A DNA stretch of 64,000 nucleotides from Nageia nagi (lineage: Eukaryota > Plantae > Pinophyta). Where the stretch lies: NCBI GenBank assembly GCA_050084985.1, contig JBITNC010000002.1, forward strand, positions 3,224,001-3,288,000, written 5' to 3'. A model generated the notes under the pieces. The model did no database searches. It saw only the letters and a program-made list of their open reading frames with translations, and had not been told where the DNA came from. This document shows, piece after piece, positions 2,076 through 59,749 of this stretch (position 1 is the first letter of the stretch; each line of letters begins with the position of its first letter). A program made the translations under genes and the position numbers.

Positions 2076-2079
2076 TCTA

Positions 2080-4647: not shown

Positions 4648-4653
4648 CTCTCT

Positions 4654-4693
<40 letters not shown>
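4648..4693. repeat. (CT)n microsatellite in the Copia 3' UTR
   Basis: CT dinucleotide run with one interruption. Confidence 0.95.
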
Positions 4694-14037: not shown

Positions 14038-17000
14038 CTACCTTAGAGTTTCAGCTACTGTGGTCAATCCAAAACCCAGAGGAAACAAGGGATCATAGTG
14101 TTTGTCTCCAACGTTCATGGGCAACTGATCAACAGACTTGAACCATGTCCTTGACAACTTTCCTTGAAAACCATAATCTCCAAAAATGGCATCAGTCACA
14201 CCTTGGCCCTCAGTTCCAGGAAGCCAAGCTGCAACAAAGGCATCTATAACGGGCATGTATGGCTCAATAACCAATGGTCTGCCAGATATCAAGATCACAA
14301 CACATTTCAAAGAGCCACAAACATTTTTTATGGTGTCACCTCCATTTAAGGGAATTGTCAAATTCAAGTCATCTCCAAAACTTTCTGCATAAGGTGGCTC
14401 ACCCACCACCAAAATAGCATATGAAAAATCTTTTCCTTTGATATAGTTTGCATCTGGATTTTCCTCAAAAACAACCTCAGTAGAAGGACTAACAGTAGAT
14501 TTGACTGCTGTGAGTATTGTGGTTCCTGCATAACACAAGACAATACTAAGATGTTTGATTGCGCTAAACTGTTAATTTATAAAATGACAACCATTTGCAT
14601 TTAACGAATGGGCTTACCTACTGTACTGGTACCACTTAAACCTTGCCACGTAATCGTCCAACCACCACACTGGTATCCTAGATTGTCAGCATGAGAACCT
14701 GCAACAAGAACTTTGGCAGCCTTCTTATGAAGAGGAAGTACAGGTTTGTTCCCTGGCTTTCCATTCTTCAACAATACCAGACTCTTTCTAACAGCTTCTC
14801 TTGCCAAGTCCCTGTGTTCCTGTAATTGCAGAAGCAGCTGTTAGAAGACATGAAACCAGAGTATTCTGAAGCAAACTACACACTTCTTCCATCTCGTGAA
14901 TGAATACTACGGAATACAGTGAAGATGAAGACAAAGAAGTATTGAAAATGATTTTCACTTTCAGTGATTAGAAAATATATATACAAATACCATTGAGAAC
15001 CAATATTGAATAAAACAACATTAAAGACTAGATGCTTGTGGACTATTGGAGTAAACGTAAATCCTACCTACAGCTTTAAGGGAATGTAAAATACTCAAGG
15101 ACATCCATGCTATAATAGGTACACTTGAGAACATGAAAGCAGTTACTCAAAATCCTCAATCATTCATAAATTGTCAATGAATCAAAATTTATACACACCT
15201 TCTTGCCAACTTGGTTGGCTAGGCTCAAATCTGCCATAGGTTTCTCGAAGAGCCCCATTACGAACTTCACTCGCAAGATTCTTCGCACTGCATCATTTAT
15301 TCTATCCATAGGAATGAAACCTCCTTTGACTTGGTACGTCAGATTATTAATGAAGTCTGAGTAATTGTAGGGCACCATCACCTGTAAAACAAATTCGGAA
15401 AAAATAATTCAGATATATATTTTATAGGCGGTCATCATAATCGATACCCAGCCATAGATCAGCCCTGGTTATATCCAATGTCATGCCGGAAGGCACCTCA
15501 GCTCTCTCACAGATGCATCCTTGTGACTTAATGAAAAGAGAAAGCGTTCGAACAATATTACTGCCAATGATGCAAAAGAAAGGGTACAGTACCATGTCAA
15601 TGCCTGCACCTACACCTTCCAAGACTGACAAAGAATAGTTAGCACCAGGCGGGCTAGTTATCCTATCAATTCCCTGCCAATCTGAAATAACAAAGCCCTG
15701 CAACCCAGACAATGCAAAAATAAAAGGGATGACTCACAAAATTTGAAGTAAATGGTACATAACAGTATTGGTTGTCGGTAAAACAATCCTACCAATCATA
15801 AATACAACACCAGAAGTATTTCCGGTATGATTCTCAAAAATTGGATTTAATGCCAGATAACCACAAAGATAAGGAATACCAAAGTATCACGCAGGGTTGA
15901 TAAGGAACAAAAATTCCCTAAAATCACCTTGAAGCGAAGTGTCTTCTTGAGGATGTTGGAAACAAGGAAACGGTCAGCATGCATCTTCTCCCCATTCCAG
16001 CTGGAATAGGAAATCATGATGGTAGAGACCCCCTTGTATATGGCATCAAAATAAGGAGTCATGTGGATACGGACTAATCCTTTATAGCTAACGACAGTGT
16101 TGTTCTCATTGATACCGTCGGTTGTGCCCCCATCACCCACAAAGTGCTTGGCACAAGCAGCAACCTTGTCCCTGAATAACACATGCATTCCAGGCCTCAA
16201 AAACCGAAATGCAACAAACATTTGCAAACCCTCGTAGAATGCAACATTGCATAACTCATTAAAACTGAGAACTCCAAAAGCCCATTGAAATACATAGAAG
16301 AAAAGGTCAAGTAACTCACTGTCCCGCGACATAGGGAACTCCCTTTGAATAGTTGGCAGGAGGCTGCCCCTGAAGTCCATAGATAATCTCTGTCATAGAC
16401 TTCACAATCTTCGGATCCTCACTGTAGCTCTCATAGCACCGACCCCATCTAGGATCCCTGCAAACCTGCAAGAAAAAAGAAAATGCGATATAATCACCCT
16501 TATCCTAAAAGGGTGCTCAACAAGGAGTCCAGTAGAGCATTACAGCAACGCAAGGAGCAAATGTATATGGAATGCCGGTAGCTCGGACTTCAAGGGCCGT
16601 TGCAGCACCGATTCTCCTCACCAGATCAGGATCCCTGCATCGACTCAGAACATAAAATCCATCAGTTTTCAATAGGATATTATAATCGGTTTTCAAAACT
16701 AGCCTCAAAATGGGGTATTTCTTCAATTTTCTCACCTTGTTGCTCCAAGACCAACGTTGTGCGGAAAGATAGTGGCTCCGTACACATTGTTGTGGCCATG
16801 AACGGCATCGATGCCATATATCATGGGAATCTGGAGCCTAGTAGACATGGAGCCCTTCTGAAACTCATTCACCATGCTGACCCACATTGCAGGAGTTGAC
16901 TGGTTCCCCGGCGTGCTCCCTCCGCCACTCAGAACACTCCCTGTAACACACCAACAAAATCCATAACCATAAAAAAAAGCCCAATAAAAACAACTCTTTT

Positions 17001-17262
17001 TCACAAACCAAAAATGTTGCATACCAATGTAGTATTTCTTCATGACATCAGCAGAAGCCACTGAACGCTCGATCTGGGTCATCTGCCCGATCTTCTCCTC
17101 CAACGTCATCCGCTTCAGCAGATCCTCCACCCTAAAGTTTATAGGCTGAGATGGATCCTTATACAAAGCAGATCTTCCCTCCGCATATCCACATGCAATA
17201 CAAGCAACAAAAAGCAGCAGCAGCATCAACTCCTGCAATCTACACTCCATCTTCCCCACCAT
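14038..17262 (-). CDS. Glycoside hydrolase family 3 beta-D-glucan exohydrolase / beta-glucosidase (barley ExoI-like), secreted, 633 aa; exons 17262-17025, 16940-16736, 16634-16544, 16465-16320, 16171-15928, 15697-15593, 15381-15199, 14819-14618, 14525-14038
   Basis: All 8 introns are GT-AG and phase-compatible (1902 nt, open frame). Hydrophobic signal peptide; motifs [51 protein letters not shown], nucleophile VISDW, acid/base [16 protein letters not shown]. Confidence 0.97.
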
Positions 17263-17302
17263 TGCCCAGGCTTTCAATACCAAAGAACAGTCTTTTAGTT
17301 TC

Positions 17303-17402
17303 CTGTTACCCGGTGAGGCAATGAAAGTAAATATAGAGGGAACGTATGTTCCTTCCAATATCAACACGACACCTCTGATTCGTTTCCCAAGTCGTTACTT
17401 AC
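17303..17402 (-). other. Probable 5' UTR intron of the GH3 gene
   Basis: Minus-strand GTAAGT donor at 17402 and CAG acceptor at 17303, 40 nt upstream of the ATG. Confidence 0.5.
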
Positions 17403-19800: not shown

Positions 19801-20149
19801 GTAATCAAGATGAATCAATTATGGTAGTTGTTGATACCTAATTTAGCACCCTTTTTTACCAAATTAGTTGTCACATGATCCTCACTATGTTATGATCAAT
19901 CTAACATTATATCATGTGTTATTTATCAATTATGAACCAATACTTAAGCTATATCTTATGCATGGTTCTCTTATTTTATGCAAGGAATGGCCAGCATCAA
20001 CCACGCATCAGCACAAGTGTGCAATGGTGCATTCAAGTAATTCTCTTAATCCTTCAACCTGGCTATATAAAAATCATAAATATATCACACATGTTAGTTA
20101 TATGAGATAAATGCATATCTATGTTTGGAAAGTTAACAATTTGTAGGAA

Positions 20150-21450
20150 GATTATTGAAGATACTTACTAAGCTTAATAGCATGGCTTATTGGAGTAGTG
20201 AGTGGGATATCTACCATTATTTATGCACCTTCTACATCCTCCATGGATGCACATATGAGATCTACATTAGGGGCATCCTCCTTCCCATCTTGGTCATCAT
20301 CATCCACCTCCATATCCTCTTATCCTCTACCCTCCATGTCACCCTCATCATCCTCTTCTTCATCATCTACCTTTGTAGCTACCTCTAACTCCTCCTCAGC
20401 ATATGTACTAAGTGGAAGCGATTGATATATATCCCACCATGCCATATACATATTTTTATGCTCTATCACAATAGCATCTTCATCATTGCCATCTCTCGAT
20501 CCATCATCACGTGGAAGGTGCCACATAATGATCCACCTAGGCATTACCTCATAAACACATGGCTTCATGATCCCACATCTCACTATTGTATAGATCACAT
20601 GATGACATGAAGTAGGAATACCCTAGCCATGATTAAAGTGCAACAAAATATGGTTGGGCCTATATGTCTTAACAAATATCTTCCTTATTTAGAGATAAAT
20701 TATTATCAATGATCTTTGATCATTGATTTACGGTACTATGCACATGAGATACTCTTTATATGATTTCCTATTACCACCAATTAGGAAGTGTATCATCCTC
20801 AACATCTATAGGAATATTTGAAGGCTAAATTATTGCAGTATGCTCATATGCCCAACACTGCAATATATAAATGTGAGCTACTCATCTATCATTCCTCATC
20901 ATTAAAACAAAGTGATGCAGATCATGGAATTCTTCACTACATGCACTATTTCTAAAGGAAATACTTAATGATTCTTATTTGAGTACAAGATGCAATCAAT
21001 GTGTGAAACCATAATCAATCTCGTATACCTCATGGATGATGGCCTCCCTTGAATTGCCTTATAAATAAAGGCTTCCTTCTTACCGATATGGTACTCCTTA
21101 AAACTAATCAACCACTTGGAATTCTTAGCCATACTTATCACCATGATATTGTCTTTCATATGTATCAATGCTTCCTTCATAAGAACCCTTAATATCTGAT
21201 GCACATCCTCCAATGTAACAGTAATTTTACCAGTGGGAAGGTGAAATGTATTGGTTCTCTCATACAAATGCTTAGATAATATCATCAAAATATGCTTATC
21301 TACCCTCACATATGGTACCTCAAACAAATATCCTACTCTTGGACTCCTGAGTATCATCAACTCATCTTGGCCTAATTGATCAAACCAGGTCCTAGCAATC
21401 CTCTAACTCTTGCTATGTGACTCCATAATAACAATACGAGAATGAGAATA
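20150..21450 (-). pseudogene. Old degenerate plant mobile domain (PMD, aminotransferase-like) gene
   Basis: ORF 20965-21360 contains ERTNTFHLPTGKITVTLEDVHQILRV; a downstream acidic tract DDEEEDDEGD as in the copy at 29463-31734. Confidence 0.8.
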
Positions 21451-22574
21451 CCAAAAAATAAAAATAATCAAGTAAGTATGTATGTATTTTAATTTACAAT
21501 TTTTTTTGCATGTTTACCTAAATAAATGCAAGTAATAAATGATCATTAATGTACATTCAAGATGAAATTATTGTTATCATACAATGCCAACATTAGGAAG
21601 CGATGCATCCCAACATTAGAGTTGGGTATCTTTGAGAATAAGAAGAAAAAATTTATCGTGCACTTCAAACACATCAAATCCCAAGTGAAAAATGAATTTC
21701 AACCCAAACAAAAATATTAACATGCTAAAATGTTAATGCCCTGCATTTTCAAACAAAATTAACACTTACAAATCGTTCAATCCATGAAATTTCAAATAAA
21801 TTCAATTTTAACTATAAAAACATTTATCCTAACCATTATTAGGACCTTGAATTCAATCAAATGAGATGAATTTGAATTTGATTGAACAACATAGGCCCAA
21901 TGATCATATTTCTTAGTAATTCTTACCTTCATGATTTAAAATCAATTCAATGCAAGACAAATGCAAAGATATCTCATCAAATATCCCAAACAAGGCTTGA
22001 AACTCGCACAACCTTAGATCTCTTCAAACCAAGGTAGCAAATAATGAAAATGCCAAATAAAATAATGTTGAACTTATTTAAAATCAAATAGGACACACTT
22101 ACTAATACAATTGTATCCTTTTAAGATAAATAAATGTCATTTCCTTCAAGATCACTCCTTTGACCAATGCATGATAAATCGATCGACATAAAATTCAAGC
22201 AAATACTTAATAATCACTAGCACTAGTAGGTAAATATCCATGACTAATTATCTTTCAAGATTCCTAATATAAATCACAAGAAATACTCAAAATTCATATT
22301 CTGATAATCAACAAATAAATACATATCAAATGAAGGTGCCAAGGTTGCAAAGATTTTGGTGCTAATGTTGGGAGCAACATAAAGATAAAAGTAGCATTTT
22401 CACAAGAAAATACTTGGAGGCATATCATCATGCATCTTAAAGGGAGTTCTCTCATCCTATCTATTGCTTTCAAGTACATTGCTATGATTTCAAATATTTT
22501 TTAAGCTCTCATTAAAGGATACAAAGTTGTTCTTTATATTCATCCAAGATCACCTTGGATGGAATCCTACTGTT

Positions 22575-23633
22575 CTATAACTCAAGTAATCAATCACACA
22601 TAAGAGGTAACATAAAATATATAGCGGTTCCTCTCAAACTTGAGAGTACTCCACTCTAATTCTAAACTTAATTATTTCTCAAAAACTCACAAGAACCCTC
22701 TTACAAAGATCTCTCTTCCTATCTCACTACAAGCTTATAGCATTTTTATGCTTCTACAAAAGTTGAGAATACATAAGAGGAACCCTCTATTTACAGGAAG
22801 AGAACCTAGATATATGGGATGTGTATCCTCATGCCCATGAGGTTGAGTGTAGAACCATCACTCTATTTTTTATTCACCAAATACTTAAAAGGTATTTGAA
22901 TAAACTTTTAAGTATTTAAGTTTATTATTTAGAGAGTAACCTAAGAAGAATAGATATTCTTTAGATACCTTATAAATAATAATCGATACAATAGTGCATT
23001 ATTTAATCTAACATTCCCCCTTAATGCAATATTGGGGTAGAGAGAATAGAATATAGAAAGAGAGTGTAAGAGAGTTCTCCTCCATAAGAATACAATTGGA
23101 GATGAAAACTTGAAATATTGAGAAGTAATAAAGTTTAGAAAAGGCTCAACTACATAAACATTTGAAAAAATTATTTACAATACAATAATCATAAACCATA
23201 AATGGTTAAGTAGTATTATTTCAACAATATGTTGACGTAATGAGCCTCCATGAGCTTGCATACTCGAAATAAGTAACTTGCAATCTACAGAAGAAACCTA
23301 CAAGTTACAACCAACTCATAACAATATCAATCAAATATATATATATGTATTAGATAAATGAATCAAGTAATTCCATCTATAAACTGATCATCAAATGGTG
23401 CAATATAAGTCATCAAAAAATGTCAAGCAAACATATAATCATATGTATAAATAAAACATGTGTTGATCAACATCAATAGAACATATAAAATATGCACATA
23501 CTAGTTCCTTATACATGGATAATTAAACAATGCCATAAGATCATATATTCTAAACAAGTCACTCACATATGGATAACTCCAACTAATTCCTCACACATGG
23601 ATTATAAGAGCACACACATAAAGATCAACACTA
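22575..23633 (-). mobile_element. Copia 3' LTR fragment (5' end at 23013) plus 3' UTR, related to the element at 1322
   Basis: Minus-strand PPT TAAGGGGGAA followed by TGTTAG at 23013; the LTR and UTR resemble 4000-5150. The lower boundary is uncertain. Confidence 0.7.
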
Positions 23634-26076
23634 TATTGAAGGAACTAACACATACACTTAATTCCTAAATGCTCAAGATTATATGAAAGGTCTCTCATAC
23701 AACAATATTCTAAAGCATAAATAATCTCATAAAGTAACTCAAGATATAAAATCCTTCCTCCAACAAGGAGTACATCCACTAACAAAATCTTACTTCATTC
23801 ACAAAAACAACTCTCTTACAATCCTCCTTACTTCATCTCCTAAACAATATCCTAAAGCATAACTTTGCTTCATAAATTGGTGAGTAATCTCAAAGAGGGG
23901 GCCTTCTATTTATATGCAAAAATCCCCTTTTGGATCACTCTTTTAACTATTGTACAAAAGCACGGCATGCTACTTCCTTTTACCTAAGGGGCATGCTTAT
24001 GAGATGGAGTTTAAGACAAGTTACATTATCATATTCACTTAAATAATTAAGGTATTTAGTGATATCATTTAGTATTAGTGAATTTACAAAGAGGGACATT
24101 ACAAAATATTTCAATAATGCATTATGCATTCCAACACTCCCCCTTAACGCAATATTAGGATGGAGTGAAGAAGAGAGAAGAAAGAGAGAGTAAGAGAGTT
24201 TTCCTTCAAACAGATATAATCGAAGATGAGAACTTTTTACATCTTTGTGAAGAAAGCAAGATCTTTGTTTGAGACTCACTACTTTACCATTTTAATAAAT
24301 GGTTTACAATACAATCATTAACAATAATCAATTTTAATGTACATAAAGTAGTCATCCAACTGAAAGTCATGGTGAGTCTCTATGAGCCTTCACACTTGAA
24401 GTAAGTAACCTGCAATCTCAAAAAAACTTGTAAGTTACAAGCAACTTAAATAACAAGATTAGTTAAATGCAACACATTCACATCAATAAGGATAGATGAA
24501 TCAAATAATGTCATCATAGACTGATTAATGGTGCTTTATATGTCATCATGAAGATGCCAAGCCAATACTCATAGTCACCTATTGTATACAAAAAATATGT
24601 GTTGATTATCATTAAAAAATATAGCATAACAAAATGCACATATGAGTTCCTCACACATGGATAACTGAATAGTGCTAGATTGGCCAATCATTTGCTCAAA
24701 AATTATACAATAAGTTTTTCACATAGAGTGAACTTACCATGAAGGTGTACAAAAAAATCAACACTATACAATATAAAATCCTCCTAAGGTTGAAGTTGTC
24801 ATCACAAACATGAATTCAACACAAGAATTTAAACTTCACTTCCCCTTAAGAGAAACTTCACAAACCTGATAGCATCCCTAAGCTTACTAAATTGAGTTTT
24901 AAAGAGGGGTTTGGTGAATAAATCAACTAAGTTCAAGGTTGATGAATAATACTACAAGTGTATGACACCATCAAGAACTTTTTTTCTGATGAAATAGACT
25001 TGAATTTCCACATGTTTTATTCTTTGATGGAACACATGATTCTTAGCCAAAGAAATAGCCTATTGGTTGTTTGAAAAAATTAGAGATGGGCCAACTTGTT
25101 GATACCTAATTATTTCAAAATATGCCTAAGCTAAATAGCTTCCTGGGTTGCAATAACCATGGCTTGGTATTCAACTTCTATGGTGAAAAGAGAAATAGTA
25201 GACTCCTTCTTGGAGGCCCAAGGATAGCACCTGAACCAATGCTAAAAACATACGTAAAGGTTGATTTTCTATCATCTTTATCTCCCTTATAATCAGAATT
25301 AGAGAACCTCGAGAGAAAAAAAGAAGGCAACTTGAAATACTTAAGAGCAAGATCCTTCATCCTTGTAATATACCTTAAGATTTTTTTAATAGCATTGAGG
25401 TGCTCAACATAATCTTTTTGCATGAACCAAGCCATTATATTTATTGCAAAGGCAATATCTAGTTTGAAAATAATCAAATATAGAAGACTACTAATTAATT
25501 TTTTATAAGCTATAGCATCTACCAACTAAGAGTTGGAGCAAAGGGACACAATGATTCCAAAAGAGATTGAGATTGCAACATGTTTACACTCTTCTATTCC
25601 AAACTTTTGTAATATGTATGATATATAATTTGATTAACTAAAATAAGTACAATCTTTGTATTGGTACACTTACATTCTAAGGTAGTAGTGCAAGAGATCA
25701 AGATCAATCATTTCAAATGTTGCCTTAAGTTTGAATATGCACTCTTGAATGATTTCATCATTATTCTTAATTATCAAAAGATCATATACATAAAGGAGAA
25801 TCAAAACCACATCTTTTCCTGATTGAACACATATAGATCAGAAACAAAAAAGCACTTAGAGAATCTAATGTTTATAAAGTACCCTAAAATCTTCTTGTAC
25901 TACACTTTAGGTGCTTGTTTAAGTCCATACAAAGACTTCTTTAGCTTGTACACAAATGACTCTTTTTCTTTCATAATAAACCATTCTAGTTGATTCATGT
26001 ATATTTTCACATCTAAGTCACCATTGAGAAATGCACTCTTTACGTTAAGTTGAAAAAATTTCCATCCTTGAGTTGC
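23634..26076 (-). mobile_element. 5'-truncated Copia (LTR about 23634-24136, 3' UTR, RNase H/RT), same family as 1322-5213
   Basis: PPT TAAGGGGGAG + TGTTGGAATG at 24136; ORF 25178-25525 (DDRKST); RT QLNVKSAFLNG near 26040; colinear with 2700-4724. Confidence 0.88.
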
Positions 26077-27775
26077 TGAAAGTGGTCAATCACAAATTCT
26101 ATATGCAATCACAAATGAATTATAAGATGAAGAGGAATTTAAATGGAAAGGTGGTCAATCACATAGGGCTTAGAGATGATTCCTTATTTTGGATTCAATA
26201 TTATCGTACTTAGTGGAGCATCATAAGTTGGGGTGGCGATCATTTGACTAAATGTACCAAGTTCTATGACTATCACGATGCAACATGCATCATGCTCCAT
26301 ATCCATAAATGATGTTGGTAACAAGTGAGAAAATAAAGAATGAGCAAAGCTTATAGACCAAGACCTATACATAAAATGAGATATTCATTTTGTTCCAAGG
26401 AAAGTGCCAAGTCAAGGCAATTTTGATGCTTTGTCTTAGGCAAGCATAGGTAGGGGTTTGATTTAGGTCAAACCCATTGACTATTTTGCTTAGAAAAGGG
26501 ATAAATCATTATGGAACACTTTATGCTCGAGGGTTTGCAATAGTTCTTAGAAAGTTTCAAAAGCCATGATGTCTTAATCTCCTAGGATGTCCTCAAGACT
26601 TGGTATAGAGGGAGGGTCAATTTAGGTGGGCATAAGTTTGAAATTTATGAATAATCTATAAAGGTATCTAGCTACAAGATTGTCTATTGTAGGTTGACGA
26701 ATTAATAAGGAAGCGAAACATAAAAAGCTTTATATGGAAAAAATATTTTCCATATATGGAACCCTAAAATGCCTTGGAGAAGGATATGATAAATCTAGTT
26801 TATCCAAATCTTGGTCTACATTGCATGATGTTTTGATTCATTAAATTTAAAATCCCTAAATATTCTCCTTTCATAAATTAGCCAAGAAAATGCAAAATCA
26901 ATATTAAATGATGTTCCTAAGTGTTAACACGTAAAAATGAATTTATGTTTTTAAATCAATAAATTAATGAAAACATGCTTGGTCTAAATATATGTCTTGA
27001 ATGTCTTAATGTGATAATATCAATGTTTGTCTTGAATGTGAATTTTATAATGATTATCTTGAATATTGCATGGATTATCTTGAATATTGCATGAATTATC
27101 TTGTTTATTGGTGTGGTTATCTTGAATGTTGTGAATTAGCCTTGTTTATGTAGATGCATGCCGACCCATGGGTTGTATTATCTATTATCTATATAAATAA
27201 GGGATATAATAGTAAGTCCACATATCAAGGATACACACGATCCCACGTATGGTCTTGTAGTGGCAACCCCTTAAGGTATCTCTTGGTACCGCCTACAAGG
27301 CTGTGGTTTGTGTACTTCCTTTCGCGAGCTATCCTGACATCTACAATCTATTCTGATATCACACTGCTATCTGAGACATCCGTATTGAAGTTCTGGACTT
27401 GATTGAGAGGTCAAAAATCATCAAACGAAGGTCACCGGTGCTCCTTTATGAACCAAGAACACCGCCGACGCTCTATTATCTCTGAAATGGACCGCCCGCG
27501 GTCCTCTTTTTGCATCTTCACAGGTCACTACATTTTTGGAGGGGCAGTTCATCATCAGTACATCGCCAACATCTTCATCTTTCGTTGTCAAGTACATTCC
27601 GTGAGGTAAGTATACAAATTACAGTCTTGTTTGGTACAATTACATTTCTGAATCGGTTATCTTGTTCATTGCTATTGAGAATAAATTACTATCCGTAGCT
27701 CAAATACAGATATATTGGGTTTGTAGATATTTACCTATTTATTTATTTGCACGCTCAATTTTATTTGTAAACATT

Positions 27776-27793
27776 TGGTGAACCCGACGTGAA
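27776..27793 (+). other. Primer-binding site complementary to tRNA-Trp
   Basis: TGGTGAACCCGACGTGAA is the reverse complement of the plant cytosolic tRNA-Trp 3' end as I recall it (TTCACGTCGGGTTCACCA). Confidence 0.85.
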
Positions 27794-27864
27794 GTTCACA
27801 TCATTGTACTAAAACCCTAAGGGTTTTAGTTAGGACTAATATCTATTTTGTGAGTGTTTTAGTT

Positions 27865-29082
27865 ATGGATCAGCTTAAATTATTCTTACGTAGTCTTTCA
27901 AAAAGAGATCTGGATGAATTATTGGGGGAAATCAGACATGATGATCCAGAGGGATCCGGAGGAATGCAAAATAGTGCTGAGGGCGATAATAGTAACTTTC
28001 AAGCTACTATAGAGGGTATGCAAAGGCAAATAGATAGATTGGCAAGGGGATCAGCTTCGCCTAATGATTCTTTTGAATTTGGTAGTCCCCTATGCGATGA
28101 GATTCGTAGGCACATGCCACCATCTGATTATAAAGAGCCAAAATTCTGCAAGTTTAATGGTGAAGGAGATCCGAGGAGACATCTACAAGGATTCAAGGAT
28201 GAGTGTGAACTCAAAATCGGTACAGATCAGAGATTACAAGCCAAATTTTTTCCCCATAGCTTGGAGGGAGAGGCTCGAGAATGGTTTTATGCCCTACCTG
28301 AAGGGTCCATCACATCATTCAGAGAATTCAGTAGTTTATTCCTTGAGCAATACAAGCATAACATCAGGTAGGAGGTTATGGTATCAGATTTATGCGCTAT
28401 AAAGCAAGGCAGTGATGAGAAGCTGGACAAATTTGTTGTGAGGTTTAAGAAGACATGGTAGCAAGTGAAGACTAGATTGACAGAAAAAGAGGTAAACAAT
28501 ATTTTTAAAGAAGTTGTTATCTTATCCTTGCAATCACATGTTATCGATTATACACATCTTGCATTTTCGGATATGACGTATAAATTGTTAGAGAAAGAGA
28601 AAGTCCTTGTGAAGCTAGGGCTTGTGAAGTATGGTAGTGATGATAAGACTAAAGTAAAGGATAAGAGATCACAATCACCAAAGAAGGAGAAAACTATCCA
28701 TGTGGCCAAGAAGACAAGTGAGCCGAAAGAGAGGAAATTTGTGAAATTTCCCATACCTCCGAGGTATATCCTAAAAGACCTTGTGGTGAAAGGGTTGTTA
28801 CAACCCTTACCTAAGCGTGAAGAAGATCCTACAGCAGAAAGACCCGCTTGGTATAAAGAAGATAGGTATTGCGAGTATCATCAGACTAAGGGCCATGCTA
28901 CTAATGGGTGTGGAAGCCTTAGGGACAGAATACAGAAGCTCATAGAAGATGGATTCTATGTGTGTCCGGTAAAGGTCGAAGGTGCAGAGGAAGAGCCACA
29001 TGTCAATGTGATTTTCCATGAAGATGTTTGCGAGGCTAGCACCAGTGGGAGCTTTAGGCTCTCTGGGGGTATCATTTGGTAG
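27865..29082 (+). pseudogene. Gag (retrotrans_gag plus CX2HX4HX4C knuckle), single frame with two internal TAG codons (28369, 28459)
   Basis: KFNGEGDPRRHL, FPHSLEGEAREWFYALPEGSITSF, YCEYHQTKGHATNGC; ends without protease or pol. Confidence 0.9.
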
Positions 29083-29462
29083 ATCGATATGAAAAAAAAA
29101 AGAGAGAGAAGCTAACAGTCAGTCCAGGTCACTAACAAACGTCATGGTGAAGAGATTGGGAGCTTCATGATGTCATAATAGGAATGTCGATGTTATATTT
29201 CATGTTAATAGGACCGCCGGTGGTCCTCTTTTAGTGGAAAATAGGAGAAAGTTAAAAGGTTCCAATTCCCCCCGCAACGTGAGAAGTCAGAATTGCAGGT
29301 TGTGTCGTTGACGTTCATTTTCAAGAATCATAGAACATCAATTTCATCCATCATAAGCACATATACAAGAGCAATCAGGTACCAAAATTTGTGTTTCATA
29401 TATATATCATGAAAAAAATGTTTGTGTTTACAATACAACTGGATGAGATCACATAGAATGAC

Positions 29463-31734
29463 CTAAAATATCCTACTAGAGCCCCCTCCCGCTACACTAG
29501 AGCTAGTAGCCCTGCTAGATGTGCCACCCCCGCACCGTGCCTTGTACTTCTCTACACGTGCCTTCTCCTCACCGATCTGTCTCTCGGCCTGGCGAAGCTG
29601 CTCGTAAAGGGCTTTGATCTCTTTGTTGGCTGCTTGTAGGTCCTGATAGATGCCAGTGTAATCCCCTCCTCTAAACTGTAGACGACCCTATAGCTCTCTG
29701 ATCTCCGCATCCTTCTGGCCGATTTGACCGCGTAGCCTAACCATCTCAACCTCAGGATCCTGGTCATCTGTGACATAGCATAGATATATCATGTTAGTCT
29801 TTTGCATATCATGAAAGTAGAAAATCAAAGGAAAGCAAAAGAGAAAATAAGCTACCGTCATCATCCTCGTCATAGTCTTCCTCCTCCGCATCTGTATCTG
29901 TCTCATACTCAGGTTCATATTCATCCTGGTCTGGATCGGTCTCCTCATTGTCATCATGACCTGCATCTAGAGACGTGTCACGGGCATATGTCGGGCTACT
30001 CTCTCCTCCCCACCCTCCCGCCGTGAAGGGAGCATCCCATCTGGTCTCTATGTCCCCTGTGTCTTCATCCTCTCCCGCATTGTCACCCGAGTCGGTATCA
30101 TGAATACCTATGTGGTGAGGACGACGTTCCCTCCACCAGTCTAGGTAGTCCTCCGTATGGTCAGGTCCATCTATGTCATCATCGGCCCCATAGTCGAAGT
30201 CCTCGCTAGGGGACTCCCAATCTGAGTCCCAGTCAAGTACTGGCTCGTAGTCCTCTGGGAGGTGCCTACTGCGATAGTAGCGCATCACTATCCTACAATC
30301 ACCCGGTATACCCTGCTGGAGGTCGAACTGATGGAGTACCCGCTCTAGCCTGTACGGCTCCACTAGTGCCCTACGTGCCTGTATGTATGTTGGGTGTCTC
30401 ACCCATGCCATCTCTTGTATGTCCTCCTCCCACTCTGGTACACCCCCACGATAGGGATGCCAATATATCTGTGTCTCCCGCAGTAGGTCAAGTCACACAC
30501 GCCATCCCTCTAGGTCCACGTTAGGGAAGCCTGGTCCCTCTGTCATCGCCCACCGTTGCCAGGTGGGTACATCATCTGGCTGGTCTAGGGGCAAGGTCGT
30601 CGGTCTAGAAATGACGATGTGATCATATGCCCACACCTGCAATATCATGGAGTGTGCTACCTGTCTCCCCCCTCTCTCTACCTCTACGAATCCGTGGAGG
30701 TCATGATAGAGTTATGCCAGTATCGCGGGGCACCACACATATCGCTGCCTATGTGTCACCATGTCCTGTATGATAGGAACCATGCCCACGGGGAAGGTCT
30801 CACTACTCTTGTCCGGGTAGACAATAGCATCCAAAAGGTAGGCAATGAGGAGCCTCATCCGTAGGTCACCCCGTGCTGGAGGATACTCTGGCACATGTCT
30901 CATTAGGGACACACCCCTTTTCCTATGATTTACTTCATCTGACCCTGTTAGCCATGTAGCCCATACCTCTGCCTATTCCAGGCTGGGAATAGGAACCATG
31001 TTCACTAGCCTCCCCCTGATAGGAAGTCTAGTGATCCTGTAGATGTCCTCTAGCGTCACTGTGATCTCACCAGTCGGAAGGTGAAAGGTGTTAGAGTTTG
31101 GATCCCACCTTTCCATCAGGGCTATCAGCATATCATGATTGTGAAACACATAATCAGCAAATGCTAGGTAACTGAATGAAATGTCCTCCAAGATACTCCG
31201 GGCCTCGTCAGTTTGTGGCCACTGTTGGGCAATGGTAAAAGCAGCACTCTTGCCGGATGGTCGCATAAGATACGAATGATTCTGCAAGAAAAGAGTGATA
31301 GAGAGCAAGTTAGTATCAGATATGAAATAAAAATAGCAAAACAGTACAGGTAAAGAAGATCGGCCACGGTCTAAACTAGGTAAAGAAGACCGCCCATGGT
31401 CTGAACTAGGGCAAAAAGGATCGCCAGCAGTCCTATTTCTGTACATAGGGGTCAACAAAATTTGAGGTACAAGTTCGTACGGATGAGCGTGGTACAGCCA
31501 TAAAACCAAAATTTCAAAAAATGGGATAAAAAAGTAAAAATGATTGGCTGAGGTATTCAACAGGTAAACCCTAGGGGCAACTCGGAAAATCAGTGTGCAA
31601 GGCAGCTAAAATCTGAAAGCAAGTAAAAACATAGCAAGAAAAAGGTATGAAATGCAACATACCTGATGACCGGTAAGAGAATTGGCCACTAAGGTAGCTC
31701 TATGTCCATCTCGACGTGTGATTGGCAGGGCCAT
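29463..31734 (-). pseudogene. Antisense 3-exon PMD-domain gene (exons 31734-31663, 31281-29856, 29767-29463; 600 codons) with acidic tract and C-terminal coiled coil
   Basis: Phase-compatible GT-AG introns; PMD motifs ALMERWDPNSNTFHLPTGEITVTLED, LQVWAYDH, YRLERVLHQF; four internal stops (30973, 30712, 30493, 29688), each one C>T away from a sense codon, and no frameshift. Confidence 0.9.
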
Positions 31735-31870
31735 AATGCATAGCATAGCAGCGCAGGAAATATCACCTAGTGACAGCGGTAAAATCACCAACTAGAACTC
31801 TTCGACTCAGGCTTCCAAGCTCTAAGATACTCTCAGCGCTGAAAATGACAATGTGACCAAATGAGGAAGG

Positions 31871-31887
31871 GTGGGGCCCCTTTTATA
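31871..31887 (-). promoter_or_regulatory. TATA box (TATAAAA) with adjacent GGGCCCCAC TCP-like site for the antisense PMD gene
   Basis: Minus strand CTATAAAAGGGGCCCCAC, about 150 nt upstream of the ATG at 31734. Confidence 0.6.
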
Positions 31888-32184
31888 GAAATATTAGGGG
31901 CACACACTTTAAGATAGTTTCAATTTGGGCATTCAGTGTGCATGGGCAGGTAACCAGGTATCAATTTGGAATCCAAGGGCGATTCATCGTGGCCTGATCT
32001 TCACGGTTTTCGATGAATCCTCAAGAAAAGGACCACCTACGATCTCAGTTTAAGACCACCTGTGTTCTAAATCTTACGGAAAGGACCGCCTGCGTTCCTT
32101 TTTCCAGTCAATCAGCTCATCCAAGTATCACAGGTACATCACAGGTGCTTGATCAATGTTATATCCAGGATAATATTGCTTTGA

Positions 32185-32720
32185 ATCAGCTTATCATGCC
32201 TCTTGGTGGAGTTTCAGCTCCCATTTATCAGCTTATCATGCCTCTTGGTGAATTTTTAGCTCCCATTTATCAGCTTATCATGCCTCTTGGCAGAGTTTTA
32301 GCTCCGATTTATCAGCTTATCATGCCTCTTGGCGGAGTTTCAGCTCCCATTTGTCTTGCGGAGTTCGGTTCTTATGCAACTGCAGCATACCTCTTGGTGT
32401 GAAGTTTCAGCTTCCATTGCAGTTGTGTGGAACTTAGCTCTCCCCTATGTGTGGTCATGTGTATGGTCATGGTTATCATGTCTTGTCTTGTGATGTGGTC
32501 TTGTCGAGTTGTTGTCATGCCTCTTGGCGCAGTTTCAGCTCCCATATATCTTGCGGAGTTCGATTCTTATGCAACTGCAGCATACCTCTTGGTGCGAAGT
32601 CTCAGCTTCCATTACAGTTGTGTGGAACTTAGCTCTCCCCTATGTGTGGTCATGTGTGGTCATGTGTGTTGTCATGGTTATCATGTCTCGTCTTGTGATG
32701 TGGTCTTGTCAAGTTGTCGT
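32185..32720. repeat. Tandem repeats in the 3' region of the element: 4 x 42 bp (32185-32352) merging into 2 x about 196 bp
   Basis: Unit ATCAGCTTATCATGCCTCTTGGYGGAGTTTCAGCTCCCATTT; long unit repeated at about 32320 and 32516. Confidence 0.92.
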
Positions 32721-35700
32721 CAGGTCATCATGTGTGGTTAGGTCGTCTGTCAGGTCATCGTCATGTGTATGTGTGTTGTCGGGTTTTGTTGTCATGAGTC
32801 ATCAGTGTTGCGGCAAGGTTATCAGACTATCAGATATATCAGGCTATCACCTTCTATGGCATTCGTATATCAGAAAAAAGATGCAAGAGGCAAGCATGCC
32901 CAAGGTAATATCAAAGGGAGTTTTCTCAACCCATATCTAGTATTAACAAGCTTTGTCATGATTTTTGCTTGAATTTGGAATGGTTAGTGTTTATCATTGC
33001 TTGTCAATTTTTTTGCTATGATATTGTGTTTTTACTTTGAATGCAAAATCTCAATTCACCTCATGTTGCTTTCGATTTCACATCCAAAGTGGGGCATCTG
33101 TTAACACATAAAAATGAATTTATGTTTTTAAATCAATAAATTAATGAAAACATGCTTGGTCTAAATATATGTCTTGAATGTCTTAATGTGATAATATCAA
33201 TGTTTATCTTGAATGTGAATTTTATAATGATTATCTTGAATATTGCATGGATTATCTTGAATATTGCATGAATTATCTTGTTTATTGGTGTGGTTATCTT
33301 GAATGTTGTGAATTAGCCTTGTTTATGTAGATGCATGCCGACCCATGGGTTGTATTATCTATTATCTATATAAATAAGGGATCTAATAGTAAGTCCACAT
33401 ATCAAGGATATACACGATCCCGCATATGGTCTTGTAGTGGCAACCCCTTAAGGTATCTCTTGGTACCGCCTACAAGGCTGTGGTTTGTGTACTTCCTTTC
33501 GTGAGCTATCCTGACATCTACAATCTATTCTGATATCACACTGCTATCTGACACATTCGTATTGAAGTTCTGGACTTGATTGAGAGGTCAAAAATCATCA
33601 AACGAAGGTCATCGGCGCTCCTTTATGAACCAAGAACACCGTCGATGCTCTATTATCTCTGAAACGGACCACCCGCGGTCCTCTTTTTGCATCTTCACAG
33701 GTCACTACATTTTTGGAGGGGCAGTTCATCATCAGTACATCGCCAACATCTTCATCTTTCGTTGTCAGGTACGTTCCGTGAGGTAAGTATACAAATTACA
33801 GTCTTGTTTGGTACAATTACATTTCTGAATCGATTATCTTGTTCATTGCTATTGAGAATAAATTGCTATCCGTAGCTCAAATATAGATATATTGGGTTTG
33901 TAGATATTTACCTGTTTATTTATTTGCACGCTCAATTTTATTTGTAAACACTAAGCATGTTGCGAACTGATCTAGGGCATCAAATAGGTCACGGTACATG
34001 CCAAAAATTCCAAAGATGCACTATTTAAGCAAAATATCACCTCTACAAGCCAACGTCACATCCAGGAACACATTAATCAAACACAACACCTCAATAATAG
34101 TCTAGAAATGCCAACGACTCACTTATACAAGCATGATTACACTAAATTGCTCAACGTTGCATATATGAAAGCATGAACAAGTTAGACACATCAAATAATG
34201 AGATAATAAATGAGATCCAAGTATGCCATGACTCAATTGATGATAGAATGATGAGTACAATATAAACCAGGCTCAAGAGGGCTCAACATTGGCCTCCAAG
34301 GAGCCACCTTTTGTATACAACTATGTAGAGATAGATTTTGTTGTCAAAATTGTTGTAGAACAATCACACTCTACTAGATCCATGGATTCCACACTGAAAG
34401 GCTTCCTCATAGGCTAACTCTCAACAAAGAGAACAAATGTAATTTTGGAATGCCACCAAATGGGTTCAAAGGTGTATACATGTTGTGGACCCCTTAGGGT
34501 AGGGAAACCTCATAGCATTATCACCTCAACCACTAGTCAGAAGGTGTTCCAAGCCTCCTAGACTCTCCTTGTGCACTACACTCAAGGGTACTTAACACCG
34601 CCAAGTCTTGAATAGTAAGAGGGGTTTCAATATCGAAATAAATTCCATCTTTGCAACGAGACTCCTTTGCCTTTATAACATTTCTATGGATTTGGATCTC
34701 ACCTAGGAGTCATCCCCAACCTCCCCAATCACAACGTTAGCTCTTGGAGGCCCAAGATATCCAACGTGGGTGCTTAGGGATCAAGCATGCCCAACATGGG
34801 TACCAAGAGGCCATAAATGCCAACATGGGAGTCCAAGGTACCATGCATTCCAACATGGGAGTTCAAGGAACCACGTAGGTATAGGAGCCATGCATGGGTG
34901 CTAGGGTGTCATCATGGGCCAACGTGGGGGTCTAGAAGCCTCCCCAAAGTTGGTGCAAGTGCTCAAGCCCATCGCTGGGTTCTAGGTGTCCATTATGTTA
35001 TTTTTGATGTTACATGAGGCTTGGGATTCCCACAATCATCTTAGGATCTCTAATTGCATTAATGATAAATTAAAAAACACATTCTAGCTTGGGAGGAAAA
35101 TGTCCCTCGTGGGGCTCACAATATGGGTCCAATGGCCATTATATTTCTATCCCAAGTAACTAACAACAAATACATGAATAAATAAAAATATTTACAAAAG
35201 GGAATCCTTAGGATTTCAAATTTATTTATTTTTCAGAAAAAGGGGATCTTACACTATATGATGTTAGAATGACATTACTTAATAGTATTAGCTTTCCATT
35301 TCCCTCTCATGTTGCATTTTTAGCTTAAAGCATAGGGAATACTCTCTCAACTTCTCATTTTTTTATTTCATTCTTTAGAGGGATCTATCACGAGAGCAAA
35401 GAAGAAGCACAAAGATGTTCCATTGCATCAAGGTTTGCTATTTATGTTTTATAAACATACACTCATCCAGGAACCCACTCTAGATACTACCCAATTAGAC
35501 CTTGAGCCCACCCCACATTGGTATACCTTTAAGTTAGATGAATACCTTAAGGATCATATCCTACTTGCCAAGCATATGAAAAAAGGTAAAGGTAAGAGCA
35601 CAACTAAGAGCAACTAAGTGTTAAGCACAAAAATAAACAAGTCTTTCAATCAACCGATGTCCTCGTCCACTACACTTGTAGATGATCCATTATCCTCAAC

Positions 35701-43900: not shown

Positions 43901-46900
43901 GTTAACTACCCCCAATTAGAACCAATATACCTCACAAAACTTTATATCTTCTAGTCTCCGATTTCGTATCATCTCGAACTGCATGATCATGGGCCGCCTA
44001 GAATCCAGGATCCGAAGGAAACTAGTTCTCTCCATGATGACGTCCTTGAGCTTTTTTTTTCGAATGCTATCCTCTCTAGTGCTTCAATGGATTGTTGCAC
44101 TGCCACCAAGACCTCATCTATATGCTTATTCTTTACTGCAATCATACCCTCCTTTAGCGGTTTGATCTTTTGGTGCTCTTTAGTGGGTACCTTAGCTGAT
44201 TCCAATTCCTTGGTCAATATCCTTTGTGTGGCTAGCTCCTTCTTGAGGCCTTCGATCTCCTTATCTTTCATCATACCATCTTTGGTGATGGCCTCAACGT
44301 TGGAGATGATTGCATGTTTCTGACCAGCCAGACCAATCGGACCTGTATTGATGATTTGGTTAATTTGTTGGAGGTCTTCGGGACATTGTGGATTCTCCTT
44401 ATCAGCTATAATGGTCTTGATGTGTATAGCGTTCTTAGCTAAATGCACATATGTCTGGGTTTTCCCTGGACGGGTGGACCTTTCTTCAACCTAGTTGTTT
44501 TTCTCTTCCGCCCTAAATTCTCCTTCGACATCCATATTAAACACATCTAAACATTCTTCCATATTGACACACCTGTCATTCGTGGGTGATGGCTGATAAG
44601 TGTCCACAATTGCCTTTGGAATAGTAACAACGTTCTTCTTTACTCTTCTTGAGGGTCTCTCTTCTCCTTGCTCAGCATGCTCACTTGAGGCTCTTGTAGC
44701 TTGTGATTGTGGGGTTCTCTTTAATCGGGTCCTCTTTTGCACTGTCTTGGATATTGGCTCCTTGTGCTTCTCAATAGATGGCTTTGTCGCTGATGCCTTA
44801 TGGGTTTCTGCCAATATCTCTACAGATTCATCTTGTTTCTGTGCATCTGGCATTTCCTCATCTTGGGTTGCATTCTCTTTTTGTTCTTCTTCTGATGCTC
44901 CAATCTCCCCTTCCTCTTGATTTTCATCAGGCTTATATGAGGGGTTGGAGGGTGATGATCCGGATGGTGGAACAACTGGTGACCTCCCGATTGTCGTGTT
45001 CCTAGGTGGTCTTGGAGATGGAGAAGGATCTTTGTGTCTGTTTCTCACGCATCTCACCACCTTGTTTGTAGATACTCGCTCTAGTTCCCTTGCATCATGC
45101 TCATCCATGGTGGCTTGCACTTGTTGCACAACTTGTTTGATTGGCCTTTAGCCTCGCATGGGCACATATTGTCCAACTGGTGTTTCAACAACTAGAGGGA
45201 ACTGTGTGACTCTGGAAGTAGACTCCTGAGGTTTTCTTCGCTTGTGCTGCGAGAGTCTTTTACTGATAGTAGCTTCAACACGATGTTGCTAGTCATTTGC
45301 ATCCTTGTGTACCCTTTCCCTTATCTTCTTCATCTCTATCTCATTGTTGATATTCTAGAAAGGCTCCTCGTCTACGAGTGACTTATGCTTATAAGGTTTC
45401 TTCCTTTCCTTCATGAAGAATGAGTGCATTCTATGATCCAGATCATAATGGTTGGCAATAGGCATCTTCTTGAAATTGAATTTGGCCAACTCTTCTTTCA
45501 TGGTTTCCACATCCGTACAAAACTTGCACTGATATTCTCCTACAGCAATCGGCAAATTGGAGGTAGCCGATTTCTTCTGCCATACCTGCTTGTTTAGAAA
45601 GGCCAACTGCCTCATCATCTCCATTAATAGCATCCTGTTACTCACGAATCTTGGCAATTATTAGGGCTGGATGGCTGATTCGTGTATACGAATGTACGAA
45701 TAGTGTTGGTGATGGAAGAAGAGGTCCCCATGTTTCTTCAAAGCATCTTGGGCTGAATTGGAGATCCTAGCAACTGTGATCTCTCCCTTAAGTTCTTTGT
45801 ATATTTCATACTCCCATCCATCATTTATCATTACAAAACTATCCCATCTCCTTTCCAACTTCCATTTGGGGTAGCATTTCCAAATGGAATATGTCCTTTT
45901 TTCTATCCAAGCCGTCTCACCCTGAGCTGTATCTCTATACTTGTCATGAAGCAACATGTACATGAGGTATGAATTGAGGTAGAATTTACGAGTGGTACCC
46001 AAGGATGACAATTGATTAGCTATGGAGTTGCTTAACACGTTGCTCCATTTAATTCTCCTCCCTTTGGTGATCTCTAGGATGAACCCAACGAACTCTTTCC
46101 TAAACTTTGAGGCGTCTTCCTTCCCAAGGATTCTAGACAACAAGAGAATAATCAACTCCATTGCAGAATAGAAGTTGGAGTGAGGAGCATTGATAAGTGC
46201 ATTTCCCTTCAATCCGTGATGCTCCTCCAACATCCAACTCTTGACAACGACGGCTGCTTTGGGGTCTCTTGGTAACAAGCTAATGATCTAGCCTCGCTAT
46301 ACTCGACTTCTCCTTCAGCAGTCCACTGAAATGCTGTTTTGATGGCATCCGGGCTGAAATCCATTATGATGTCTCCTTTGATACCTCGAAGGACTCTCTC
46401 CCCTTTTTGCCAAGAGTGGCCAACCTCCATGCATAATTCAGGAAATGGAGCTGTGAATGGGACTAATGTACAAGTGGAGAGTCCGGAGAAGAAGACGATA
46501 TCTTTCTCCAAGTCAGTGATAGGAAGACCATGAGTGCCTTCTCTCATCTGCGTAGGATCAACATTTTGCCAATCTGCATCTTCGATGGTTGCAAAACCGT
46601 TTCTCAAGAGTTTAGCCCTTGGGGAAGGGCTTGTTGTCTCTCACGAATGGAGATGACACAATCCTGTTTCAATTGCTCGAGATCCCTATCGAAGTCTGAA
46701 GCTGAATTACCCTTAGAAGTCATGATGTTTTTACTAGCAGCGAGGCTCCTCAAGAGTGCTGTGTGGGTTTCCAGGTAAAGATGACATCCAAATTGGAGGT
46801 TCTTGCCTTCCAAATGCTTGCGCAAGCCCTAAGGTGGATAAATGATGATGTTTGAGCACACAAATTTGCAATTTGTTGTTGTCCTAGTGCAAAAGTAGAA

Positions 46901-51532: not shown

Positions 51533-51660
51533 GCTCGAAAATGGTCAAAAATGCAAAGTTGAGCCCAAAATGCTCGAAAATGGTCAAAAATACAAAGTTG
51601 AGCCCAGAATGCTCGGAAATGGTCAAAAATGCAAAGTTGAGCCTAGAATGCTCGGAAATG
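51533..51660. repeat. 39-bp tandem repeat (about 3.3 well-conserved copies, degenerate copies nearby)
   Basis: GCTCGRAAATGGTCAAAAATRCAAAGTTGAGCCYARAAT. Confidence 0.9.
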
Positions 51661-51999
51661 CTTGGAAAGTGCAGTTTTGGCAGGGAATGCACATAAATGT
51701 TCGGTTTTGATCAGAAATGGTCGGAAATGTAGAGTTTGAGCTCTAAAGTGCCAAAAATGCCGAAAATTATTGTTTTTCAGAGATTGAGCTCGGTGTTGAC
51801 CATAAATTTCGGAAATGACCATTCTTCAAAGTTTAAGCTCGGAAATGGTGGATAGCGGTCCGAAATGCACAAGTTGTGTCCAAGAGCATAGTTTGAGGAT
51901 TTTGGTGATATCAAAGCTCGGGTTTTGACACATAGCTCCCAGGAATGGCAAAATATGAAAATTTTTCAAGAGACAAATGCAAATGTTATCGAAAATCAA

Positions 52000-59550: not shown

Positions 59551-59749
59551 CTTGTCATTTCATTATTATGTGTGAGGCCTTAGGTAGATGCATCATTGTA
59601 GACTAGGCTAGAGGGAGTTTAGGGGGCCTTAAACCCTCACAAAATCTAGAAGTTATTATCTAAAAATTGTTGATGATACCATCCTACTTGAAAAACCTTT
59701 AGTGAGAGGTAAGATAGTTTAAAAGGATTCTAGAGGCAAAGCTCCTTTG

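Follow-up and report, generated by a model that had tools for sequence, protein, structure and literature searches.

A pol-less, decayed Tat-like retrotransposon of Nageia nagi with gag and an antisense PMD gene

Within a window of 64,000 nt from the conifer Nageia nagi lies a long terminal repeat (LTR) retrotransposon of 7.0 kb (26922-33950), which carries gag and, on the opposite strand, a gene for a protein with the PMD domain (Table 1). The two LTRs start with TG and end with CA, and a target-site duplication (TSD), a primer-binding site (PBS), plus a polypurine tract (PPT) complete the set expected of an LTR retrotransposon; a first-pass annotation, made from the sequence alone, had reported these parts as intact, and their coordinates, with CTAAG on both sides, bear this out. 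As a whole, we give about an even chance to the explanation that this is a decayed pol-less element of the Tat clade, likely a member of a non-autonomous family, in which a PMD protein resembling VANC21 would bind the element's own palindromes and counteract silencing.

Table 1. Features of the retrotransposon, in coordinates of the window
Feature	Position	Strand	Remarks
Left TSD	26917..26921	.	CTAAG
5' LTR	26922..27773	+	852 bp, TG..CA; TATA-like box 27190; motif sites 27427, 27487
Predicted 5' untranslated region (UTR) intron	27606..27862	+	sense strand; starts in the LTR, spans the PBS and ends 2 nt short of the gag ATG
PBS	27776..27793	+	begins 2 nt past the 5' LTR
gag (capsid and zinc knuckle)	27865..29082	+	405 codons, 2 stops; Gag-protease frame cut at about nt 29030
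Junction and spacer	29034..29462	.	29134-29270 likened to the relatives' post-integrase non-coding DNA; motif site 29209
Exon 3 of the PMD gene	29463..29767	-	coiled-coil-like; 1 stop
Intron 2	29768..29855	-	88 nt, phase 1, 31% GC
Exon 2	29856..31281	-	3 stops; encodes an acidic tract and the PMD domain, the latter at exon aa 6-384, approximately
Predicted intron 1	31282..31662	-	381 nt; motif sites 31355, 31385, 31416, about 30 nt apart
Predicted exon 1	31663..31746	-	ATG at 31746 or 31734; from sequence
Predicted PMD promoter	31881..32150	-	TATAAAA 31887-31881; motif sites 32028, 32051, 32081
Tandem arrays	32185..32722	+	42-bp x4 and 195-bp x2
PPT region	33086..33098	+	common to relatives
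3' LTR	33099..33950	+	852 bp, TG..CA; motif site 33664
Right TSD	33951..33955	.	CTAAG

The element was compared with 21 loci of relatives, obtained by one metagenome scan with a Gag alignment (58-81% identity in the best segment), and with contigs from 5 of 24 public runs, of which X1 and X4 are DNA and X19 is RNA by the tool's guess; X1 alone gave 25,777 contigs over 5.3 kb. The runs recorded as containing the sequence include air metagenomes and no RNA run, a record that carries no information on expression. The two LTRs differ at 21 positions (19 transitions and 2 transversions, no indels; Kimura two-parameter distance 0.025), and 16 of these differences lie in a CG or CHG context, from which it follows that the copy has been methylated. 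With a conifer substitution rate that we take to be about 2e-9 per site and year, the element is at most some 6 million years old. Its PBS resembles what is presumably the 3' end of tRNA-Trp, and the start of the PBS recurs as an exact pattern in 11 of the 21 loci; no tRNA gene was found in the window, and no occurrence of the PBS string was found in the literature. In the 5' UTR an intron is predicted, with a clear donor in 15 of 17 relatives and an acceptor AG in the same proportion (15/17), and no RNA joint at 27606-27862 is listed among the public-run contigs. Its splicing would give a gag mRNA without the PBS, distinct from the genomic RNA that can be copied.

The gag product matches Pfam Retrotrans_gag (E 6e-15) and is interrupted by stops at codons 169 and 199, with no frameshift. 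The first-pass annotation described gag as ending cleanly, which does not hold. The likeness to the relatives ends at about nt 29030, just past the zinc knuckle, the final ~16 codons being unrelated, and in the relatives the frame runs on toward a protease, a match to whose region was found behind gag in 18 of 21 loci (the protease was recognised by eye from its D-G motif; Pfam gave no match). Beyond the break, 29134-29270 resembles the non-coding stretch that follows the integrase stop of the relatives, with z-scores of at least 4.6 in 8 of 10 of them and 11.8 at best, and the other flank of the PMD gene, 32041-32180, likewise resembles their post-integrase DNA (z up to 9.4). Since both flanks are post-integrase-like, gag was joined to DNA of this kind, and the PMD gene sits in the usual slot of antisense extra genes. 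By sequence comparison, the end of gag is thus not a natural one: a Gag-protease frame is truncated after the zinc knuckle and fused to post-integrase-like DNA. A plain replacement of pol by PMD is a reading that we softened, given that DNA of the post-integrase kind flanks the gene left and right. A permissive tblastn search with a relative's pol domains revealed no pol remnant (best E 0.19); the deletion spares the capsid and the zinc knuckle and takes out all the enzymes, namely protease, reverse transcriptase (RT), RNase H (RH), as well as integrase (INT). Pairwise ratios of nonsynonymous to synonymous divergence (pN/pS) of gag against 10 relatives, taken from copies with one long alignment, were 0.16-0.22, which shows past selection that is not assignable to the pol-less phase.

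The PMD gene is convergent to gag, spans 600-604 codons depending on the ATG chosen, and has a single TATAAAA, at 31887, about 140 nt upstream. The reading frame of exon 2 contains 3 stops, where the two alternative frames have 31 and 42, and it matches Pfam PMD (PF10536) with 161 bits, against a cut-off of 34.9 (E 5e-47). The first-pass proposal of a convergent antisense PMD gene of about 600 codons with its own TATA box is confirmed. For exon 3 a coiled coil is suggested by weak matches to coiled-coil families, none of which reaches its cut-off, and by the sequence pattern. The closest named proteins are two matches at 28-31% identity, the best being a Cryptomeria japonica protein at 31%. 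Related PMD fragments number 63, 62 of them at 60-89% identity, and 13 fragments compared pairwise are 61-98% identical (median 71%); a tree of 18 rows, computed without named PMD-A/B/C references, has long branches. No relative appeared in viral contigs scanned with gag and with a PMD fragment, nor in genome contigs scanned with the N-terminal part of PMD. Some further PMD sequences were noticed on the way. On the minus strand of the window, 19950-21600 holds a second, far more decayed PMD gene, about 27-30% identical to that of the element, whose match sets in where exon 2 does and whose acidic tract is followed by a stretch resembling an intron, with the branch motif of the element's introns; no LTRs and no family motif were found around it. 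Two more PMD relics lie among the loci of the relatives, at L020 812-1281 and L005 14103-14375. The open reading frame (ORF) 45661-46287 of the window was also considered as PMD, and it was not detectable as such by Pfam or BLASTP.

It could be argued that the PMD gene was captured recently, promoter and introns included, from the host or from a MULE, by an element already deleted. The normal promoter and intron layout of the gene would agree with such an origin, and MULE-borne PMDs exist (PMC5418596). Nevertheless we hold a recent capture to be very improbable: the intron and the promoter of the gene carry the motif of the retrotransposon family described below, the related fragments are as many as 63, the gene is merely 28-31% like its two named matches, and neither a transposase nor inverted repeats were found beside it.

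Both PMD introns have GT-AG borders and a CTAAC branch motif that precedes the AG by 30-32 nt, and GC content falls from 49-53% in the exons to 39% in intron 1 and 31% in intron 2. For intron 2, homologous fragments extending to the end of exon 2 number 7, and every one of them loses the match at the same acidic-then-Gly point and shows beyond it an L/F-rich read-through, as expected at a conserved donor. Moreover, one contig of run X19, its record 11, follows exon 3 as far as the intron-2 acceptor, and its last 30 letters, compared by eye, agree in frame with an exon-2 end like that of P0060 rather than with the intron, while no joint at intron 2 was found in the two DNA runs among the joints listed. 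Several observations weigh against splicing: this is a single contig, of depth 6, from a run that is RNA by guess; the splice-calling tool gave no joint for either PMD intron in the public-run contigs; and X19 record 14 and X20 record 24 span intron DNA unspliced, although unspliced contigs are what genomic RNA or DNA is expected to give. Splicing of intron 2 in a related copy is supported, whereas intron 1 is a prediction from its sequence. The three-exon gene of the first-pass annotation therefore stands for intron 2, on the seven fragments and the one probably-RNA contig, and on sequence grounds for intron 1; the spliced reads that it suggested looking for, at 31663/31281 and 29856/29767, yielded no joint called by the tool and the one X19 contig that by eye fits splicing of intron 2. 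An antisense orientation preserves introns during the copying of LTR elements, which would explain their survival here, as the first-pass annotation proposed.

The element carries six internal stops, two in gag and four in the PMD gene (three in exon 2, one in exon 3). The first-pass annotation took the fact that all six are single C>T changes from sense codons as a sign that both genes were intact at insertion; this argument is empty, any stop codon being one C>T away from a sense codon, and we compared instead the residues of related copies at the same positions. A residue one deamination away is present at gag codon 199 in 19 of 22 copies and at the three stops of exon 2 in 22 of 31, 7 of 7 and 5 of 7, and the transition partner of the exon 3 stop occurs in 33 and 46 DNA contigs. 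At gag codon 169, such a residue was found in 2 of 21 relatives, which are about 66-78% identical. Deamination is thus in line with five of the six stops; the first one in gag disagrees with the residues of these distant relatives. That both genes were intact at insertion is compatible with the number of stops expected from the LTR clock, which is short of proof. The count itself is somewhat high for intact genes, with six stops versus about 3 expected from LTR-calibrated deamination (6.4 at upper rate limits; P ~0.08). Among the differences listed, the third-position bias is weak (21/44 in PMD, P 0.03; 7/14 in gag, P 0.15; selected lists), a point against our overall explanation.

Placement in the Tat clade, marked by an extra RNase H of archaeal type (aRH) in Pol, goes by the kinship of Gag, LTR, PBS and PPT sequences, the element itself being without pol. 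Relatives with roughly 70-80% identical Gag bear RT-RH-aRH-INT, and in four loci (L002, L007, L008, L011) this series is continuous to the 3' LTR, in agreement with the first-pass description of the element as Tat-like and pol-less. In the close relatives RH is followed by an RVT_3/RNase_H domain (aRH) and then by INT, which is the Ogre/Retand-type order (PMC6317226). The nearest Gag among the loci is that of L001 (pN 0.087, pS 0.45), whose contig ends in the protease; L013 begins with an LTR end 94% like that of the window element, and a Gag from run X19, about 93% identical to that of the window, continues in the protease-type way. Gag-protease relatives are present in the same samples. From integrase to 3' LTR the relatives have about 0.8-1.5 kb, in which the 42-bp tandem unit, also of pol-bearing relatives, and the PPT are common with the window element, and PMD was found in none of the 12 relatives readable over this stretch. 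The search for an autonomous partner, recommended in the first-pass annotation, has thus given pol-bearing relatives by Gag, four of them read from RT to the 3' LTR, and none with PMD. The lineage gives rise to deletion families: eight copies in seven loci (L003, L005 with two copies, L006, L009, L016, L018, L020) share one deletion, reaching from RT to the start of integrase, in which Gag-protease is joined to the integrase core without RT-RH; L010 shows yet another, from most of RT to aRH; and three loci (L008, L011, L012) pass from gag to RT without a protease match, a third defective layout.

The first-pass annotation supposed that a family had dropped pol and kept PMD. Position 29054, right behind the break, is covered in X1 by at least 55 contigs that there differ from the window and in X4 by at least 47, and, among the loose ends listed, multi-contig ones leave the window sequence behind 29027-29030 (6 in X1, 17 and 16 in X4); one contig of X19 leaves it there as well. 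These ends resemble, by eye, the protease-type continuation. No multi-contig loose end entering at the break from other DNA was seen in X1 or X4, among the 24 of 399 listed. The DNA on both sides of the gag-PMD break is multi-copy, and we consider it likely that the element belongs to a multi-copy non-autonomous pol-less family. Some data speak against a family: none of the contigs listed crosses the junction with 31 nt to either side of it; the gag-PMD layout was seen in 0 of the 21 loci, none of which is closer than 84% to the window gag at the DNA level; and one X19 contig joins 29032 onward to at least 255 letters unlike the window, which could be the pol-bearing parent or another derivative. 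The junction, whose copies it had been proposed to count, was seen neither in the loci nor in the contigs listed, and the supposed family is likely rather than shown.

The alternative is that the element is a lone copy of an autonomous gag-pol-PMD element with the layout of Tat lineage V, from which one deletion, before or after insertion, removed everything from protease to integrase, with no family behind it. The PMD gene does occupy the usual slot, which runs from pol to the 3' LTR, and to its left lies DNA of the post-integrase kind; the lack of a bridging contig among those listed, as well as the X19 contig with other DNA upstream of 29032, would agree with it. Moreover, the PMD copies (61-98% identical, median 71%) are far more diverse than the split from the nearest protease-type Gag (about 93%), therefore PMD is older than the gag-PMD junction. 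A distant Tat-like family, at L020 12432-16409, does have an antisense PMD gene behind its integrase, with a likeness of 28% to that of the window. On the other hand, in the two DNA runs the sequence just past the break is multi-copy and, among the multi-contig loose ends listed, none enters there; the cut left the capsid and zinc knuckle whole while removing all the enzymes; and PMD is present in 0 of the 12 relatives read from integrase to LTR. We therefore find a single deletion in a lone copy improbable.

A model of the PMD domain was built on an alignment of 104 sequences, with X placed at the stops, and reached a pLDDT of 82.9 and a pTM of 0.86; an earlier one, from 25 rows, was unusable (pLDDT 43). 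In a Foldseek search of 350,542 PDB chains, VANC21 bound to DNA was the sole match at E<=0.001 (7.2e-4, TM 0.40), and VIA-align superposed model and VANC21 with Z 14.2 and a root-mean-square deviation of 4.0 over 281 residues, the next best match having Z 3.9. Sequence identity between the two is 12-15%; searching the PDB by sequence, be it with the PMD exon or with its profile, gave nothing real, and the model matched no viral model. The protein of this retrotransposon is thus predicted to fold like VANC21. The likeness of PMD-C proteins to VANC was noted previously (10.1101/2024.09.27.615353), and on the model it would extend here to a retrotransposon-borne PMD. As the alignment consists mostly of PMDs about 25% identical, the match is a property of the PMD family; in addition, a common fold does not show a function, and silencing is the context in which the host's PMD-C proteins were first described (PMC5418596).

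The non-coding parts of the element contain an imperfect palindrome of the type GGACC-N6-GGTCC, often at intervals of 23-31 nt. A profile was trained on 20 sites, all of them in relatives without PMD. With it the element shows 10 sites (3 in the LTRs, 1 in the spacer, 3 in PMD intron 1 and 3 in the PMD promoter), all non-coding, and the remaining 57 kb shows 0, shuffled sequences giving 0.65 +/- 0.82. The elements of seven relatives have 4-10 sites each, in most of them including two training sites, versus 2 in 55 kb of flanks. The short motifs to which VANC21 binds form arrays in the introns, the intergenic stretches and the non-coding ends of its element (PMC5735166), and the layout of the motif sites in the element, as read from its sequence, is the one known for VANC targets. 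That the palindrome might be specific to PMD-bearing elements was considered and rejected, as PMD-less relatives carry it equally. The motif is family-wide, which would fit an action in trans and fits a host factor or an RNA signal as well.

Taking fold and motif together, we tentatively propose, with a chance at or slightly below even, that PMD is a DNA-binding anti-silencing factor for the palindrome. The guess of an anti-silencing role made in the first-pass annotation gains in this way two independent lines, the VANC21-like predicted fold and the non-coding motif clusters, with binding as a candidate property. The relatives' enzymes would copy the family: Gag, either the element's own or that of a partner, would package the unspliced genomic RNA, which the partner's Pol would copy, and the antisense introns would be retained, not being introns on the copied strand. 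The PMD mRNA would be transcribed from its own promoter, and its protein may bind the motif in the LTRs, the spacer, its own intron and its own promoter, lowering silencing there, and could also act in trans on motif-carrying relatives without PMD. A true division of labour between two defective halves of one family, in which the pol-less element gives Gag and a sequence-specific, VANC-like anti-silencing protein and the PMD-less, pol-bearing relatives, with palindrome clusters of the same kind, give the enzymes, seems unlikely to us; if true, the PMD would be a retrotransposon-borne anti-silencing system of the VANC type with its target motif identified, and the pol-less element would be a helper of its partner, not merely a parasite.

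Against an anti-silencing role, the same non-autonomous family can be read with PMD as a passenger, a self-limiting or an RNA-handling factor, or with its antisense RNA as the regulator, the palindrome being an RNA hairpin or a host-factor site. The 10 sites amount to 4-5 independent clusters, and the presence of the motif in PMD-less relatives may point to a host factor or an RNA packaging signal. Loss of MAIN/MAIL1 releases silencing of transposable elements (PMC5418596), antisense RNA has been proposed as a regulator (PMC7264820), and direct PMD-DNA binding is stated to be not yet demonstrated (10.1101/2024.09.27.615353). However, the motif clusters sit in the intron and promoter of the PMD gene itself, four of the clusters, when folded as RNA, show nothing remarkable (z -1.1, -2.0, 0.7, -1.3), and the predicted fold matches a DNA-bound anti-silencing protein, so that we regard a role of this other kind as rather unlikely. 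With a predicted VANC21-like fold, a candidate target motif and relatives with and without PMD, the function of the retrotransposon PMD becomes testable. If an anti-silencing role is right, it would unite the host MAIN/MAIL1, the MULE VANC and the retrotransposon PMD in one kind of motif-guided anti-silencing, and may help to explain how Tat elements swell large plant genomes.

The rest of the window holds other mobile and host sequences. Three long stop-free stretches on the minus strand (43987-46287) are likely an accessory gene of another element, with a helical domain and acidic and basic tracts, no Pfam match and no BLASTP likeness to PMD; beside them, 47097-48099 and 51520-53766 contain palindromic repeats, dispersed at intervals of about 70-280 nt, and also a 183-bp tandem array. 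A candidate host gene, by eye a family 3 glycoside hydrolase, is at 14038-17394 on the minus strand. Two old Copia-like copies in opposite orientation (1322-5214 and 22971-26076), a Gypsy-like copy (8487-12917, RT at 10670-11444) and a small pair, 1.6 kb apart (57619-59555), were also noted, all of them as LTR-like pairs.

Among the Tat elements, the lineage matches no REXdb subclade in all its features, which are a 5-bp TSD, the order RH-aRH-INT and, presumably, a Trp-like PBS. This last trait would set it apart from Ogre and TatIII, whose PBS is mostly for tRNA-Arg, the dominant type of Ogre/Tat lineage V (89% in REXdb; PMC6317226). Antisense 3' extra ORFs (eORFs) with PMD are described for the gymnosperm Tat lineage III and, with a coiled coil, for lineage V (PMC4408406). 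Like lineage V, the window element has an antisense 3' PMD with a coiled coil, the latter on weak matches, and a 5-bp TSD; the Gag-protease fusion and the aRH between RH and INT, further traits of lineage V, are found in the relatives alone. Both lineages are described as pol-bearing, and the accessible text of PMC4408406 and PMC6317226 mentions no introns in their eORFs, whereas the window element has no pol and its gene is predicted to have three exons. Lineage V is described from angiosperms, and our host is a conifer; in lineage III (TatIII) aRH comes after INT, and in the relatives before it. TatI, with its 4-bp TSD and aRH before RT, differs from the 5-bp TSD found here and from the RT-RH-aRH-INT of the relatives.

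With the TR-GAG elements (PMC13570524) the window element shares LTRs, PBS, PPT and a gag frame without protease, RT, RH and INT, but it adds a 2.3-kb spliced antisense gene with a predicted promoter of its own and measures 7 kb. An antisense TRP28 ORF is carried by non-autonomous clusters of Retand (Table 1 of PMC11963269; Alopecurus myosuroides 2 and 3b), which are likewise amplified defective copies of the Tat clade that kept an antisense extra ORF and tandem arrays; they differ in retaining protease and RT, by which they were found, and in having TRP28 instead of PMD, and the word 'intron' is absent from that paper. The maize Grande gene23 and the Botrytis Boty brtn (PMC7264820; PMC8365987) are antisense genes lying between pol and the 3' LTR, gene23 having its own promoter and a nuclear product (PMC7264820), although they encode unrelated proteins in pol-bearing elements. 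Among the extra domains found in Gypsy elements of plants, PMD is the commonest (PMC9289625), and a review from 2020 asks that antisense and spliced transcripts be sought (PMC7264820); surveys based on ORFs alone or on RT would miss an element like this one and cut its PMD gene at the introns. In the literature we found no description of a pol-less element with gag and a spliced PMD gene, although an earlier mention of a PMD intron or of PMD-A/VANC likeness is possible in subscription papers or supplements; antisense PMD in Tat elements and gag-only derivatives are each known, and their combination is new.

Regarding the protein, the nearest counterpart is VANC21 of VANDAL21 (PMC5735166; PDB 9lnj/9lnk), which is also transposon-encoded, has the fold predicted here (Z 14.2) and goes with a clustered non-coding motif. 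It differs in belonging to a DNA transposon, in its 12-15% identity and in its non-palindromic motif, and its binding and demethylation are demonstrated (PMC5735166), whereas the window PMD is known from sequence and a model. The Arabidopsis MAIN, MAIL1 and MAIL2 proteins have the PMD domain, as PMD-C (PMC5418596), and reportedly work against Polycomb silencing by way of DNA motifs and are similar to the VANC DUF1985 (10.1101/2024.09.27.615353). They are host genes of clade C, and the window PMD is borne by a retrotransposon; in the accessible text of the same source, anti-silencing is raised as a hypothesis for the PMD-C encoded by transposable elements, and a function of the retrotransposon PMD-A is not given.

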